DNA of 64,000 bases from Nitrospirota bacterium (GTDB lineage Bacteria > Nitrospirota > UBA9217), in NCBI GenBank assembly GCA_963741205.1, contig CAVUHW010000013.1, forward strand, positions 96,001-160,000, read 5' to 3'. The notes below the pieces were generated by a model that was not told the origin of the DNA, made no database searches, and was given only the letters and a program-made list of their open reading frames with translations. Shown piece by piece: positions 56,013 to 64,000 of this stretch. Every line of letters begins with the position of its first letter. Position 1 is the stretch's first letter. The position numbers were made by a program, and so were the translations under genes.

Positions 56013-57570
56013 ATGCTCCTCATCTTCCCTCCTGTTGCAAAACCCTGCGAACCGCCGGCAGGCATCGCGAAGCTTGCCGGCGCGCTTAAAGCCCACGGAA
56101 TATCCTGCGAACTCCTTGACGCGAATATCGAAGGGCTGCTCCATCTTCTCGGACAAACGCAAACAGCCTCCGATACCTGGACCCGCAGGGCGGTCAAAAA
56201 CATTTCAGCGAACATCGCCGCGCTCAGAGATCCGAGGACCTATCAATCTCCCGACCGATACGACCGGGCGGTCCGGGACGTGAACCGCGTCCTCTCGGTT
56301 TCGGGCGGACACGGCGCGCTCGTCGGCCTGGCGGATTATCAGCACCGAAGTCTCTCGCCCCTGCAGAGCGCTGACCTGCTTTTTTCCGCAGCACATCCCG
56401 AACAAAATCCCTTCTATCCGTACTTCAGCAAGCGGCTGCCGGAAATGCTCGATCGCGCGACAACCGGGATGGTCGGTCTTTCCCTGAACTTTCTGAGCCA
56501 GGCGCTCACAGCCTTCGCCATGATCGGGTTTATCAGGAAGGAATTCCCGGGAGTGAAGATCATCCTCGGCGGCGGACTGGTCGAGTTCATGGATGAAAAG
56601 GCCTGGCTTTCAGAATCCCTTCGGCGATCTCGTGGATCACTTGATCGCCGGCCCGGGAGAGGGGCCCCTGCTCGATTTGCTCGGCGTCAAAAAAGTCACG
56701 AGTCATCACTATACGCCGGATTACGCCTCACTCCCGGTCAACGATTATCTTTCACCCGGCTTCATCCTTCCCTACAGCGGGTCGAGCGGGTGCTACTGGA
56801 ATAAATGCTCCTTCTGCCCCGAGACAGCAGAGGACAATCCCTATGTTTCGGTCCCCGTTCCGCAGGCAATGGCTGATCTAAGGGCACTGGCCGCGAATAC
56901 GAAGCCGGTCATCATCCATCTCCTGGACAATTCGGTGAGTCCCGCGCTCATGCAGGCGCTCGCGGCCGACCCTGTCGGGGTCCCCTGGTACGGGTTCGCG
57001 AGGATCGGCAAGGACCTGTGCGATCTCGATTACTGCATGGCCCTCAGGCGTTCTGGGTGCGTGATGCTCAAGCTCGGACTGGAATCTGGGGACCAGGGAG
57101 TTCTCGACCGGTTGAACAAGGGCATCGACCTCGAAACGGCGTCGAAGGTCTTAACGAATCTCTCGAAGGCGGGGATAGCCGCGTACGTCTATCTTCTCTT
57201 CGGCACGCCCGCTGAAACAGTGGTCGAAGCGCGGAAGACACTCGAATATGTGGCCGCTCACGCGGAGGCGATCACGTTCCTCAATCTGGCCATCTTCAAT
57301 TTGCCCGTGTGCGGCGCTGAGGCCGCTCTCTATGAGACCGGTCAGTTCTATGAAGGAGACCTCTCGCTCTACAGCGGTTTCAAGCACCCGCGCGGATGGG
57401 ACCGGAAGGAGGTGCGCAGATTTCTGGACGCCGAGTTCAAACGCCATCCTGCTGTAGCAGCCATCCTCAAGAACGACCCGCCGTTTTCACCTCCAATCAC
57501 GCCGCTTTTTTCGCGCCCGCCTCGAGGCCGATGCCTTGAAATTTGTCTTTTTTCAGCTATAGTAAAATGA
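56013..57570 (+). CDS. B12-binding/radical SAM protein (frameshift near 56585; 3' end uncertain)
   Basis: IILGGG; GCYWNKCSFC; LKLGLESG; LFGTP.ET. Confidence 0.85.
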
Positions 57571-57632
57571 GTGGCATTACAAAGATCCCTCGTAACAAAT
57601 CCAGCCGATGCTTCATGACAAGGAGGACAACA

Positions 57633-58701
57633 ATGAATAGCGCAAGAGGCATTACCTCACGGTTTTTTCTTAGGTTCCCGTTGATCTTCGCCGCATTGTG
57701 CATCACTCTATTCGTCGCGAGGTCCCTGTTTGCCGCGAGCGCGGATGGAGATCTCATGGACAAGGCCAAGTCGGTCTTCGGGCCGCTCCCCGCCTCCATG
57801 CCGTCTCCGGACAATCCCATAACCCCCGCGAAGGTGAAACTGGGGAGGGTGCTTTTCTATGAATCGCGGATTTCCATCGACGGGACCGTGAGCTGCGCCA
57901 AATGCCACCCCATGGGCCTGTACGCGGCGGACGGGCTCAAAAAGGCCGATCGGCAACAACTGCAAGGTCCTCCCGCGAAACTCGCCGACCCTCTTCAACG
58001 CGGCGGCCCAGATTTCGCAGCACTGGATCGGCAACCGGACGAGCGTCGAAGACCAGGCCAGGCAAGCGGTGACCGGGCCCCCGGCATTCGGCATGCCGTC
58101 CAATGAATCCGTTGAGAATATCCTCAAGGGGATGAAGGGGTATGTTGCTCTGTTCAAGGAGGCCTTTCCCGGAGACAAGGACCCCGTAACCATGGAAAAT
58201 TTCGCAAAGGCGGTCGGGGCGTTTGAGCGGACGCTCGTGACGCCGGCGCCCTTTGACGATTACGCCCGGGGCGATGCCGGCGCGCTGACGGCAGAGCAGA
58301 AGCGGGGATTTAAGACTTTTCTGGACACGGGGTGCATGATGTGTCATGCCGGTCCTTACTTCGGCGGCCAGATGTATCAGAAGTTCGGCATGCTGGAGCC
58401 GTACGAGAAATACACGAAGAGCCAGCCGGTGGACGAGGGACGGTTCGCGGTCACGAAAGACCCGACCGACAAGTATGTGTTCAAAGTCCCGGTGCTCCGT
58501 AACGTTGCCGAAACGCCGCCGTATTTTCACGACGGGTCCGTGGAAAAGCTTGAAGACGCGGTCGTAATCATGGCGAGGATCCAGCTCGGGAAGAACCTGA
58601 CAAAAGAGCAGGCGGGTGACATTGTCGCTTTTCTTAAGTCATTGACCGGCAAGATTCCCGATGCGGCGCTGACCGTGCCTGTGCTGCCGTCGGAGGAATG
58701 A
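57633..58701 (+). CDS. Di-heme cytochrome c peroxidase (frameshift near 57945)
   Basis: LGRVLFYESRIS, CAKCH, CMMCH, FKVPVLRNV..TPPYFHDG. Confidence 0.92.
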
Positions 58702-60282: not shown

Positions 60283-60885
60283 ATGAATATCGAGCCCATC
60301 AACGTGTTGCTGATAGAAGACAGCCCCGATGACGCCCTTCTTATCAGCAAGTCCCTGGCCGGCGCTATGAAGACGCCCTACGGGTTCAAACATGTCGGGA
60401 AACTGACTGACGGCATGGAATGCCTGGCGGGAGGGGGCATCGATATCGTGCTTTTGGACCTTGGGCTGCCGGACGGCCGCGGCATCAGCACCTTTGCCGT
60501 GCTGCATAAACACTCGCCCGATGTCCCGGTAATCGTTCTGACCGGCCACGATGATGAAGAACTCGCCATCGAGGCCGTTCAAAAAGGCGCACAGGACTAT
60601 CTCGTGAAGGGGAAGGTCGACGGTGGGCTCCTGCGGCGCTCCATCCGCTATGCGATCGAACGGCAGAAACTGCGCACCCAACTGAAGCAGTCGATGAAGG
60701 AGATCAACACACTGCGGGGCTTCCTGCCCATCTGCGCGAATTGTAAAAAGATCCGTGACGACCACGGCTATTGGACCCAGATCGAAACGTATATCAGCAT
60801 GCACTCGGAAGCGGAATTCAGCCACGGCCTCTGTCCCGAATGTGTTGTCAAGCTCTACGGAAATGAAATCGGGAAAAAAGAATGA
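60283..60885 (+). CDS. Response regulator REC plus C-terminal CxxC...CxxC domain
   Basis: LLIEDSPDD, LLDLGLPD, QDYLVK; LPICANCKKIRD...SHGLCPEC. Confidence 0.9.
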   Translation: MNIEPINVLLIEDSPDDALLISKSLAGAMKTPYGFKHVGKLTDGMECLAGGGIDIVLLDLGLPDGRGISTFAVLHKHSPDVPVIVLTGHDDEELAIEAVQKGAQDYLVKGKVDGGLLRRSIRYAIERQKLRTQLKQSMKEINTLRGFLPICANCKKIRDDHGYWTQIETYISMHSEAEFSHGLCPECVVKLYGNEIGKKE

Positions 60886-61074
60886 CAAAGGCTGTCGGGC
60901 ACCCGTCTCTCAAATCGACGCCTTTCGAGCGCCCTGCCTCTGGAACACCGTATCATCCAGCCTCCCTCATCGCCGTTCGCTGTCCACGGCGCATGCCCGA
61001 AGCGGAAGCGTCACGCCGGCGTCATGATATTTTCTGTTGTATTAGCAAGCCATTTGGAATAAATTACTTTGTCC

Positions 61075-62109
61075 ATGTCTGAATCCTCTGTCCCTTATAA
61101 AATTCGTGGCCTGGTGTTGACGGCCCTCTTGATCGTGCTCTGGCTCGTCCTGGGCATGGTCTTCCTGGAACGGTTCATCCCGCCCTTTGACCGGCTCGAG
61201 CCGTGGCTCATGCCGTGGAAGGGCCTGATCCCTCAGGAGGCCACTCTCGACCGGCGTCTTTATCTCATGCAGAGCCAGCTCGATGCGTCCAGCAGGGTCG
61301 CCCATTACGCGCTGGTCATCATGATCGCGTCCTTTGCCGCGCTCAGCATGTACTTGTCCGTCGTCTACCAGCAAAAGCAGAGGAGGGCGCGCGAGAACAT
61401 GCTGCTCATGCTGAAAAATCAGGAAATAGCCCGGCGCAACGAATTTATCCGCTATATCTCGGCGACCATCGGGCATGAATTCAAGAACAACCTGGGGAGG
61501 ATCAAACGGAGGATCGATCTGCTCCCCGATCTTCCGCCGGAGGCGCAGGAGCGCATCGACGACAACCTGGACAAGCTCTTTGCCGATATCGATATCTTCA
61601 AAAAGATCTCCGATAAACGCGAAGAGGGCCTCGTGGAGTTCAAGAATATCGACATCCAGGCCATGCTCGGCGATCTGACGCCTCATTACGGCGACCTCGC
61701 CGATATCACGACCGTCGAAGGGGCGACCGTGCCCATGATCTATGCCGCCCCGCCGCTCTTAAAGACGGTCTTTGAAAATCTGATCGACAACTCCATCAAG
61801 TATAAAAAACCGGACCAGGCCCGCGCGCGCGTGCGCGTCGCGTGCGAGATCGACCGGGACGGAACCAGGCGCTATGTGACGATTTCGTTCCGGGACGAGG
61901 GGATCGGCATGGACGAACAGCAGGCGGACCAGTGTTTTTACAAGGGGAGGACCACCGGCGAGGGATGGGGCCAGGGGCTTTACTATGTCAAATACGTCAT
62001 AGGCCTCCATGCCGGGAAAATCAGGATCGGGAAGGAATATACCGCCCCGGGGGTCGGCACGGAGATAATCATCAAACTCCCCTTCGTAGAGGAGGCGCCG
62101 GATGTTTAG
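61075..62109 (+). CDS. Membrane sensor histidine kinase (2 TM, short periplasmic loop)
   Basis: GHEFKNNL H-box, FENLIDNSIKY, DEGIGM, GWGQGL. Confidence 0.88.
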   Translation: MSESSVPYKIRGLVLTALLIVLWLVLGMVFLERFIPPFDRLEPWLMPWKGLIPQEATLDRRLYLMQSQLDASSRVAHYALVIMIASFAALSMYLSVVYQQKQRRARENMLLMLKNQEIARRNEFIRYISATIGHEFKNNLGRIKRRIDLLPDLPPEAQERIDDNLDKLFADIDIFKKISDKREEGLVEFKNIDIQAMLGDLTPHYGDLADITTVEGATVPMIYAAPPLLKTVFENLIDNSIKYKKPDQARARVRVACEIDRDGTRRYVTISFRDEGIGMDEQQADQCFYKGRTTGEGWGQGLYYVKYVIGLHAGKIRIGKEYTAPGVGTEIIIKLPFVEEAPDV

Positions 62110-62994
62110 GGTGCTGATCGCCGACGACGACTTCGAGGACCGGGAGCTGCTGAAACTCGAAATACAGAAAGCGCTTCAGCGAAGAGGAGCCCGACCTCCG
62201 GTTTCAGGAGGCGCCCAGCGTCCGGCAAGCCCTCAAGGTCCTGACGGCGCAGATCGTCGACCTGCTGACGCTCGATATCGAGTTTGACCGGCTGAACGAA
62301 GGCATCGACGCCCTGCCCGAGCTTTTCGAAACCTATCCGACGCTGAACATCATCGTCATCAGCGGCAAACTCGATAAAAGCGAGGTGTCGGAACGGCTCT
62401 TCCGCTTTACGAAGGACAACGTCCTGAAGGGCAAACGCTGGGCCCGGCATTTCGACGTCCTCGACAAGAAGGACGACAAAACCGAGGCCTTGCGCCGCGC
62501 CTATGCCTTTGCCGTCAAGCAGCGGGAGGGCGCGGACAGCATCCGGGAACTGTTTCTCCTTGCCGAATCCTATCTCGAGAAGAACATGCTCGACAAGTGC
62601 CTGGAGGTCTATCAGAAAATACAGCGCCTGGCCCCCGGCGAAGTAGAGTCGGGGGAGAACATCCGCATCGTCAAGGGGGACGTATCCGCACAGCAGGCGC
62701 TGGACTATTTCCGGGCAGGAGAGAAGGTCGTGGCCGCCCTACTGCTGGGCTATCATCTTGAAAACCGTCTGAGGGCGTTCACCGCAGCGGCGCTCGGCAC
62801 GGACGCTTCCGACGCTCATTGAAGGGTTGAAGGAGATGGACCAGGGCCGCCGCATCAGCCACTTCAAGAAGGAACTGTTCAGCGACCTGGTAGGCCTGCG
62901 AAACAAGGCCATCCACCAGCCGACCAACGTCACTGAGGCGGATTTCCAGGCGGCGGTGAAAAAACTTGCCCTGCTGGAGGAAACAGCGCCATGA
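62102..62994 (+). CDS. Response regulator REC-TPR-HEPN-like protein (frameshifts near 62177 and 62800)
   Basis: VLIADDD, LLTLDIEF, IVISG; TPR-like LAESYLEKNMLDKCLEVYQKI; YHLENRL...LVGLRNKAIHQ. Confidence 0.75.
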
Positions 62995-63638
62995 ACGTCA
63001 AGGCCCCATGGAAATACGTTCCGCCGCCGGGCCCGGTCCTCAGCCTCCTGCTGATCGGTTTGGTACTCTTGAGTTCTCTCCTCTATTACCGGTCGGTCAA
63101 GATCCAGCGGTTTCTGGAGCCCGCCCTTGCCCTGTCCCAGCCCCGGAACGAGTTCACCAAGAACATCAAGCAAATCATCCAGAAAGAGTTCGGGGCGGGC
63201 AAGATCGAGGGCCTCAATGTTAAGACGAGCTCGATTGTCATGGAAACGTCTCTGTTGTTTTCCCCCGACGGCCGCCTCAAGGCCTCGGCGCAGACCGATC
63301 TCCAGAAGCTTGCCCGTGTTTTTTTGGCGCTCATGAAGGATGACCACCTGAGGTCTGAGATCAGTCTCGTCCTGATCATCGGCCACTTTCCCGCATCCGG
63401 GGCAAGAGAGGCAAGCGTTGCGGAGAGGATGATGGTGGCGCGCATGGTCGCGTTCATACAGGACGCCCTGTTTAAGTTGGAGCCCGGTCTCGGAAAAGGA
63501 TACTCGACCTATTTTGCGGCCGCTGTCCGGCCGATGGATCCGCGCGAGGGAAACATAGGCGTCGTGGAGTTCCGCATCGTTCCGTCGGAATATCTGCACA
63601 TCGAGGTGCTGGAGAAATTGGAGAAGTATTCCCGTTGA
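62991..63638 (+). CDS. Single-TM protein with degenerate OmpA/MotB(ZorB)-like periplasmic domain
   Basis: TM, then LLF...L...LQKLARVF...ISLVLIIGH...VEFRI; ATGA overlap with the regulator. Confidence 0.62.
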   Translation: MNVKAPWKYVPPPGPVLSLLLIGLVLLSSLLYYRSVKIQRFLEPALALSQPRNEFTKNIKQIIQKEFGAGKIEGLNVKTSSIVMETSLLFSPDGRLKASAQTDLQKLARVFLALMKDDHLRSEISLVLIIGHFPASGAREASVAERMMVARMVAFIQDALFKLEPGLGKGYSTYFAAAVRPMDPREGNIGVVEFRIVPSEYLHIEVLEKLEKYSR

Positions 63639-63694: not shown

Positions 63695-63723
63695 TTGACA
63701 AGGGGGGGCGGATTTGTTAGAGT
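63695..63723 (+). promoter_or_regulatory. Putative sigma70 promoter
   Basis: TTGACA-17nt-TAGAGT, followed by SD AAGGAGG. Confidence 0.5.
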
Positions 63724-63762
63724 TGCGAAACTATTCCAATGGGGAAAGGAGGTGAAATCAAA

Positions 63763-64000
63763 ATGAAGAAGATCCTTACGTTCATCATTGCTGTTGTGTT
63801 CGCCATGACGTTCGGCGTTGCTTTCGCGGAAGACAAGCCGGGCGGCGAGGTCCATAAGGCCGAGAAGACGGAGAAGACCGAGAAGGTCGAGAAGACTGAA
63901 AAGGCCGGTGAGACCCATACAAACGCCAAAGGCGAGAAGGCCGAAACGCACAAACACAAGCAAAAGGGCAAGAAGAAGAAGACCGAGGCAGAGACGGCTG
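63763..64000 (+). CDS. Secreted low-complexity Lys/Glu-rich protein (3' truncated; not in ORF track)
   Basis: MKKILTFIIAVVFAMTFGVAFAEDK...EKTEKTEKVEKTEK; strong SD. Confidence 0.75.
   Translation, partial: MKKILTFIIAVVFAMTFGVAFAEDKPGGEVHKAEKTEKTEKVEKTEKAGETHTNAKGEKAETHKHKQKGKKKKTEAETA

Follow-up and report, generated by a model that had tools for sequence, protein, structure and literature searches.

A conserved three-gene cassette of Nitrospirota encoding a two-component system with a HEPN-like domain as its predicted output

What does a two-component system act upon when its response regulator lacks a DNA-binding domain? This question is raised by a cassette of three genes located close to the end of the window, by which we mean the whole stretch of 64,000 nucleotides analysed here (positions 96,001 to 160,000 of contig CAVUHW010000013.1, assembly GCA_963741205.1, Nitrospirota bacterium). 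The cassette (61069-63638, + strand) encodes a sensor histidine kinase, a response regulator and a single-pass membrane protein. A preceding analysis, referred to below as the sequence-only reading, had proposed an envelope-sensing system whose output is phosphorylation-gated cleavage of RNA, serving anti-phage defence, dormancy or post-transcriptional control. We showed that the regulator consists of a receiver (REC), a TPR-like linker and a C-terminal HEPN-like domain, and that the three genes form a conserved unit in many Nitrospirota. Judged from these sequences, a phosphorylation-gated ribonuclease (RNase) acting as the output of a two-component system, with a role in regulation or stress, is somewhat better than an even bet.

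The argument is carried by the C-terminal domain of the regulator. Its hexapeptide RNKAIH lies exactly where an RNxxxH motif had been reported (Table 1). Conservation of the R and H, on which the proposal depended, was confirmed: R266, N267 and H271 are invariant in 22/22 sequences of the family, some of them at 40-60% identity, and these three residues together with E220 are invariant in 20/20 orthologues from different genomes. In the displayed rows of the latter alignment, position 224 holds K or R. According to the 2013 census of the HEPN superfamily (PMC3710099), HEPN domains are defined by Rx4-6H with a polar residue after the R, placed where helix 3 ends, and have an upstream E-x3-[KR] and an insert separating helices 2 and 3. 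These published features (motif, E-x3-[KR] and the insert) all agree with the C-terminal segment of the regulator. The HEPN fold is an up-down bundle of four helices. Consistent with it, the AlphaFold2 (AF2) model of this segment contains helices at residues 208-231, 238-247, 253-271 and 278-292 (predicted local distance difference test, pLDDT, of the block 82-94), and its third core helix ends in the R266-H271 motif, in agreement with the HEPN description. The HEPN-like domain carries the complete predicted catalytic signature, E-x3-K/R plus R-N-x3-H.

The relationship to known HEPN families was examined by profile comparison. When 12 C-terminal segments were compared with Pfam, seven matched DUF4145 (best E 5.6e-4), seven HepT-like, seven HEPN_Swt1, two RiboL-PSP-HEPN and one Apea-HEPN, and six further Pfam families were matched by one segment each. 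For hhalign, the C-terminal ~100 residues served as the query, and the targets were an alignment of 17 Nitrospirota DUF4145 domains and one of 29 HepT-like domains. The comparison with DUF4145 gave probabilities of 94.7-95.7 and E values down to 1.1e-8 over 86-89 columns; that with HepT-like domains gave a probability of 69.1 and an E value of 4.4e-5, with the RN..H of the regulator aligned on the catalytic RN..H. As a yardstick, DUF4145 compared with HepT-like domains reached a probability of 49.1 and a score of 27.2. The real scores were 45.6, 47.6 and 31.3, whereas column shuffles (100, 50+50) reached no more than 18.0, 18.7 and 20.9, respectively, and a reversed query scored 13.9. DUF4145 belongs to the HEPN clan (PMC3710099), and the DUF4145 domain of RAZR has been shown experimentally to be an RNase that needs its R and H (PMC13017515). 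In the ESM Atlas, which provides leads only, the similarity was 0.89 to clusters partly labelled DUF4145. These comparisons (DUF4145 at 95.7%, HepT-like at 69%), together with the invariant E220, support the HEPN identity with an upstream E suggested by the sequence-only reading. By sequence profile, the domain is related to DUF4145 and lies outside this family as Pfam draws it.

Several observations weigh against the view of the regulator as an RNase. Every match of a single sequence to a HEPN family of Pfam is below the curated cut-off; for DUF4145 (PF13643), the score was 13.1 bits (orthologue from locus L009) against a cut-off of 23.1. Fold searches with the whole regulator (Foldseek against the PDB, VIA wide and BFVD) return essentially receiver matches, which do not bear on the HEPN fold. 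Some HEPN families are non-catalytic and serve as binding domains (PMC3710099), and in RAZR the Arg is placed 8 residues before the His (R146/H154; PMC13017515), a position at which the family studied here has an invariant Leu. The proposed role of the third gene, in turn, is based on operon membership and fold. A PDB sequence-profile search with the C-terminal alignment yielded one chance-level match (E 0.51), and a complex prediction for two copies of the C-terminal domain scored 0.08 against a mark of 0.42, a value that speaks neither for nor against a dimer. As for the spacing, the Arg here is located 5 residues before the His and the position of the RAZR Arg is an invariant Leu; the regulator therefore follows the canonical HEPN pattern rather than the DUF4145 one. 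A bona fide DUF4145 domain at a locus of another Nitrospirota family (L028; G033:C14:13838-14110, - strand) contains the same hexapeptide, RNKAIH, which indicates that the canonical Rx4H version is also found inside DUF4145.

The remaining parts of the regulator resemble known modules, none of which is a DNA-binding domain. The intact receiver and the TPR-like hairpin described in the sequence-only reading were both recovered, the latter as a TPR-like linker. The receiver contains the motifs ADDD, TLDIEF (with D58) and ISG, that is, the acidic pocket, the phospho-acceptor Asp and the conserved Ser/Thr of a REC domain, and in intact orthologues Response_reg of Pfam matches residues 4-98 with 42.5 bits (cut-off 30.2). 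In a profile search of the PDB, CheY matched residues 3-122 and consensus TPR structures matched residues 151-206 (E 4e-6); the TPR match of Pfam at residues 149-179 is below the cut-off (TPR_2, E 7e-4 to 1e-2). The AF2 model of the regulator (mean pLDDT 76.9) shows a receiver fold, five linker helices and a four-helix C-terminal segment. Searches of NCBIfam returned generic REC and kinase similarities alone, far under the cut-offs.

In the window, the regulator gene is distributed over three reading frames (the first starting at 62102, the second open over 62154-62822, the third reaching 62994), which the sequence-only reading had joined across two indels to obtain a protein of about 295 residues. 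This reconstruction proved sound. The gene of the relatives is uninterrupted and encodes 296 residues, as does the gene in the window when read through, and a DNA alignment with the genes of five intact relatives contains exactly two gap columns, both caused by single extra bases of the window (a T at about 62175 and an A at about 62799). A tblastn search with an intact orthologue revealed three abutting pieces in three frames (residues 1-32, 28-232 and 232-295); because these pieces abut, nothing else is missing from the gene. We also aligned to the window the contigs of four public short-read runs, which are other samples with small shares and need not be those from which the assembly was made. 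All 20 runs listed as containing the sequence have small shares, and no RNA run is among them. Neither extra base is present in any aligned contig of these runs: at the first site, one base fewer was found in the covering contigs of run X2 (5 differences in 151 bases) and run X4 (31 in 562), and at the second site in the covering contig of run X1 (5 in 231).

Broken genes are frequent in this assembly, which is 84% complete and consists of 50 contigs. Within 8 kb upstream of the cassette, a CCP_MauG gene is divided between 57543-58106 and 58069-58701, and one for a B12-binding/radical-SAM protein between the overlapping open reading frames (ORFs) 56013-56804 and 56593-57570. When 74 ORFs of relatives were compared with the whole assembly, 32 orthologue-like matches were obtained, 16 of them outside the trio; six of these 16 are read in two or three frames and lie on four contigs (C6, C12, C13 and C18). 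Since the near-identical short-read contigs lack both bases and 6/16 other genes are broken, the breaks are assigned to assembly errors, and the stop at 62822, which the sequence-only reading had taken not to be real, is very probably one of them. A genuine and recent pseudogene with two true frameshifts would account for the two bases standing in the assembly, and the runs used for comparison come from other samples, which need not be its source. However, all covering contigs of strains 94-98% identical to the window lack the bases, all three original frames are free of stops, the tblastn pieces span residues 1-295 without loss, and breakage affects other tested genes as well as the neighbouring CCP and radical-SAM genes. 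We therefore regard a pseudogene as very unlikely. Apparent stops or split genes in this genome should be distrusted rather than taken as biology.

The three ORFs of the cassette overlap each other end to start, as the sequence-only reading had stated in describing them as translationally coupled. The stop codon of the kinase gene (TAG, 62107-62109) sits within the start of the regulator gene (ATGTTTAG at 62102), and the stop codon of the regulator gene (TGA, 62992-62994) forms an ATGA overlap with the ATG of the third gene at 62991. The kinase is composed of two N-terminal transmembrane (TM) helices, an outside loop of ~45 residues, an H-box and HATPase_c; the last of these scores 61.4 bits in Pfam (cut-off 26.4), and no HisKA match is listed there. 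The H-box, GHEFKNNL, is unchanged in 18/18 orthologues. The product of the first gene thus has both the H-box His and the HATPase_c domain that characterize sensor histidine kinases.

Table 1. Features of the cassette and of the regulator encoded by it (window positions)
Feature	Position	Strand	Remarks
Sensor histidine kinase	61069..62109	+	346 aa, TTG start; alternative ATG 61075
Kinase phospho-acceptor codon, predicted His H136	61474..61476	+	Sequence reading; column invariant 18/18
Response regulator	62102..62994	+	296 aa if read through; three frames here
First extra base	62175..62179	+	T of TT 62175-62176 by alignment; 62179 by short-read contigs
Second extra base	62799..62801	+	A at 62799 by alignment; 62801 by short-read contig; creates apparent stop 62820-62822
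Receiver (REC)	62102..62468	+	Regulator residues 1-122; D58 at 62274-62276
Helical TPR-like linker	62481..62717	+	Regulator residues ~127-205
HEPN-like (DUF4145-related) domain	62724..62979	+	Residues ~208-292; spans second extra base
E-x3-[KR] motif, E220...R224 (E-N-R-L-R)	62760..62774	+	In long helix of HEPN-like domain
Rx4H signature RNKAIH (R266, N267, H271)	62899..62916	+	
Single-pass membrane protein, MotB/ZorB/OmpA-like fold	62991..63638	+	215 aa

The third protein was described in the sequence-only reading as having one TM segment and a degenerate MotB/ZorB-like character, and the structure searches bear this out. Its model (pLDDT 77.8) consists of an N-terminal TM helix and a C-terminal OmpA-like domain. 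With Foldseek, the best matches were full-length ZorB chains (E 1.9e-7, 2.9e-7 and 7.5e-6), and domains of MotB, MotS, PomB, Pal, OmpA and YfiB were matched as well; no match was obtained in Pfam or NCBIfam, OmpA included. VIA places ZorB level with MotS and MotB, and for this reason ZorB is not specifically closer than MotB. Stators of the MotB/ZorB type couple ions through a conserved Asp located where the TM helix meets the cytoplasm. No invariant or near-invariant Asp occurs within the first ~45 residues of the 20-21 sequences of the third protein. The alignment of 20 orthologues has no more than 11 invariant columns (GP before the TM helix, YY..QR.LEP after it, and near the C-terminus), and the region of the usual peptidoglycan-binding motif has no invariant residue. 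A partner gene of the MotA/ZorA/ExbB type was found neither as a recurring neighbour at 22 loci nor among 47 flanking ORFs. The protein has the shape of a stator subunit without the features that define a stator, and the term "degenerate" is apt.

Conservation of the trio was a further point on which the proposal depended. At all 22 loci of relatives (7/7 in the same family and 15/15 in other families), the three genes are complete, in the same order and abutting. In comparison with the orthologues at locus L002, the regulators are 60-80% identical, the kinases 56-71% and the third proteins 38-55%. A profile of the C-terminal domain yielded 48 strong matches among 401 Nitrospirota genomes, representing at least seven families: 33 of 63 genomes in family f1, 4 of 5 in f13, 3 of 4 in f25, 3 of 9 in f27, 2 of 14 in f24, 1 of 7 in f4 and 1 of 35 in f11, the genome of the window being the 48th match, counted beside these. 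Two additional weak matches (L065 and L066) are without the trio. In the genus of the window, 7/14 genomes carry the cassette, and the non-carriers include genomes that are 96-99% complete. When all prokaryotes, each species represented by one genome, were scanned with a pattern, 35 loci were identified, 34 of which are titled as metagenome-assembled genomes of Nitrospirota, Thermodesulfovibrionales, Ca. Sulfobium or Nitrospira. Comparison of the C-terminal half with 1.84 billion protein representatives retrieved 33 proteins; 12 belong to the family and are mostly fragments, and the other 21 are long TPR proteins in which the match is limited to the linker. The regulator family is narrow in distribution.

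Neither a fourth conserved gene nor a conserved neighbourhood was found at the 22 loci, and the flanks vary. Among 47 flanking ORFs at eight loci, 12 have no Pfam match, and the others encode multihaem cytochromes, TPR/PMT_2 proteins, spermine-synthase fusions, glycosyltransferases, HD-GYP, STAS and GGDEF proteins, and housekeeping enzymes. None of these 47 ORFs matched a family of defence or mobile-element proteins.

On the basis of the domains described above, we propose the following course of events. In the membrane, the kinase would respond to a cue from the envelope side, probably in concert with the MotB-like protein; the third protein, with its stator features lost, would most likely be an accessory, envelope-facing partner of the kinase. 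The kinase would then phosphorylate D58 of the regulator. The phosphorylated receiver might rearrange the TPR-like linker, or it might dimerise, as receivers commonly do on phosphorylation, and in either way two HEPN domains would be brought together to form a composite active site. Rearrangement or dimerisation of the receiver is to be expected because HEPN RNases cut at the composite site of a dimer (for HEPN RNases working as dimers, see PMC13017515 and PMC7701990). The target RNA would be cleaved by a metal-independent endoribonuclease, and the signal would be directed at RNA instead of transcription, leading to growth arrest or to control at the post-transcriptional level.

Two other explanations have to be weighed against such a regulatory RNase. 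The cassette might serve abortive infection, in which the MotB/ZorB-like protein and the kinase would sense a perturbation of the envelope by a phage, and the phosphorylated regulator would destroy RNA to stop the infected cell. Defence proteins typically contain HEPN domains of the DUF4145 type (PMC3710099), as RAZR illustrates, and the top Foldseek matches of the third protein are ZorB chains of Zorya. Moreover, the cassette is self-contained, is found in varying contexts, is patchy within the genus and is missing from some nearly complete genomes. PADLOC, however, a check that the sequence-only reading had called for, returned weak matches at noise level only (PDC-M60B/C on the REC part and ZorB on the third gene, E 0.0025) and nothing for the kinase. 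The similarity to ZorB is itself tied with that to MotS and MotB, there is neither a ZorA/MotA partner nor a conserved TM Asp, and the flanking ORFs (0/47 with a defence or mobile-element family, 12/47 without a match) include no recognisable defence gene. The single fixed architecture, with regulators 60-80% identical across families, is also unlike the usual fast diversification of defence genes. A role in regulation or stress is preferred over abortive infection because the cassette lies in this chromosomal, non-defence context and one architecture is strongly conserved; abortive infection is unlikely in our estimation, though not negligibly so, and by genomic context and PADLOC anti-phage defence is the least favoured of the three roles offered by the sequence-only reading.

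The other explanation concerns the C-terminal domain itself, which might be a non-catalytic helical module, the regulator then being an adaptor of the widespread REC-TPR type, which would bind a nucleotide or another protein depending on its phosphorylation, without any cutting of RNA. The nearest named clusters of the ESM Atlas are REC-TPR regulators of many phyla (0.84-0.85, leads only), and the fold searches with the whole model, dominated by REC, are uninformative on the C-terminal domain. Catalysis has been lost in several HEPN families, which serve for binding, but these binding-only versions have lost the motif, whereas HEPN domains that keep it are predicted RNases (PMC3710099). In the regulators, E220, R266, N267 and H271 are strictly invariant over at least seven families while neighbouring residues vary, and we consider an adaptor function quite unlikely. 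A regulator that acts as an RNase is the reading retained below.

Parts of the proposed system have parallels elsewhere. Ire1 and RNase L of eukaryotes (kinase-KEN), which are activated by dimerisation, are likewise phosphorylation-linked modules in which the sensing of stress or of a ligand controls a HEPN RNase. KEN is a HEPN family fused to Ser/Thr/Tyr kinases (PMC3710099). Here, by contrast, a His-Asp phosphorelay would end at a REC domain that belongs to a separate protein, a Ser/Thr kinase is absent and the activity is a predicted one; the sequence relationship is limited to the HEPN superfamily. In Csm6 and Csx1 (CARF-HEPN proteins of type III CRISPR systems), the HEPN RNase at the C-terminus is gated by a sensor domain at the N-terminus of one polypeptide, an arrangement also proposed for the regulator, in which REC (phosphorylation) replaces CARF (cyclic oligoadenylate) and from which a CRISPR context is absent. 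The family is listed in the HEPN census (PMC3710099). By profile comparison, the closest HEPN family is that of RAZR/PD-T7-4 (zinc finger plus DUF4145), whose DUF4145 domain cleaves single-stranded RNA via its R and H (PMC13017515). RAZR differs in having neither REC nor TPR, in being activated by rings of a phage protein and in the R146/H154 spacing (8 as compared with 5).

Other parallels concern the output of response regulators and the third protein. In PorX (REC-PglZ) and the ANTAR regulators, a His-Asp phosphorelay also ends in a domain that does not bind DNA, although these output domains are unrelated to HEPN, and ANTAR binds RNA without cutting it. PorX chains were the top Foldseek matches of the whole regulator model, through REC, and the PglZ domain of PorX is a phosphodiesterase acting on oligonucleotides (PMC12839542). 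REC-TPR regulators (190-330 residues) have the same order of a receiver followed by TPR-like helices; the Atlas listing of these proteins includes no HEPN family, whereas the last ~90 residues of the regulator are HEPN-like. From MotB/ZorB stators, OmpA anchors and YfiB, the third protein is set apart by the lack of a conserved TM Asp, of a MotA/ZorA gene and of a Pfam OmpA match. Zorya consists of ZorA, ZorB and type-specific effectors, and the trio differs from it in having no ZorA-like neighbour and in its PADLOC results.

The known outputs of response regulators comprise DNA-binding, cyclic-nucleotide, methylesterase, phosphodiesterase and RNA-binding domains. We found no description of a receiver-HEPN regulator in the literature covered, subscription journals and the full supplementary lists of the HEPN census being outside this scope, which agrees with the remark in the sequence-only reading that the architecture was not recognised as described. 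In the parts of the 2013 census drawn on, receivers are mentioned solely as a TM domain's alternative partner (PMC3710099), and the text of its supplement contains no REC, receiver or CheY, the full architecture lists, which could hold a REC fusion, lying outside that text. On sequence evidence, the cassette is a candidate two-component system with a new output class. We also put forward, as possible if somewhat short of probable, that it may represent a bacterial counterpart of the Ire1/RNase L principle, built from a two-component system: phosphorylation of the receiver by a kinase complex facing the envelope would turn on a HEPN endoribonuclease directly.

If this is true, RNA cleavage would be a primary output of His-Asp signalling, a class of response-regulator output for which we found no description. 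With a regulator that has an RNase output, two-component signalling would gain a branch acting directly at the post-transcriptional level (or on growth arrest); such a regulator would also provide a simple HEPN enzyme switchable by phosphorylation. The family is strongly conserved and has a single fixed architecture. The hosts are uncultured, yet the question is approachable through any intact orthologue in Escherichia coli.

Some minor observations were made on the distribution of the genes. Three genomes (G009, G056 and G246) contain the C-terminal domain of the regulator twice, on separate contigs, and the cassette is single-copy elsewhere. The only one of the 35 loci of the pattern scan with a different title (L067, Betaproteobacteria) probably reflects a discrepancy of labelling or binning, not transfer. 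Stand-alone HEPN genes are common in Nitrospirota: HepT-like domains were found in 65/101 genomes (up to 10 matches each) and DUF4145 in 18/151. At those thresholds the genome of the window has no stand-alone HepT-like or DUF4145 gene, which may partly reflect frame errors.

In several genomes of the same family, certain genes recur near the trio in differing orders (L031, L033, L034 and L035), namely those for Paired_CXXCH multihaem cytochromes, TPR/PMT_2 proteins and spermine-synthase/MFS/TPR fusions. This recurrence may indicate linkage, or the mere abundance of such genes in these genomes. A scan of the window for promoters and terminators gave signals not above those of shuffles. Upstream of the cassette, a second response regulator is encoded (60283-60885, + strand), composed of a REC domain (64.9 bits), a coiled segment and a Cys-rich tail of ~50 residues (C-x2-C ... 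C-x2-C) that belongs to no Pfam family; this gene does not accompany the trio at the loci of relatives. The gene downstream of the cassette (63739-64000 and on; L001:3086-3460) is preceded by a sigma-70-like site (63695-63723), of a kind no commoner than in shuffles, and encodes a protein with a signal-peptide-like start, Lys/Glu-rich EKT/EKV repeats and a tail of Pro-Ala-Thr repeats.

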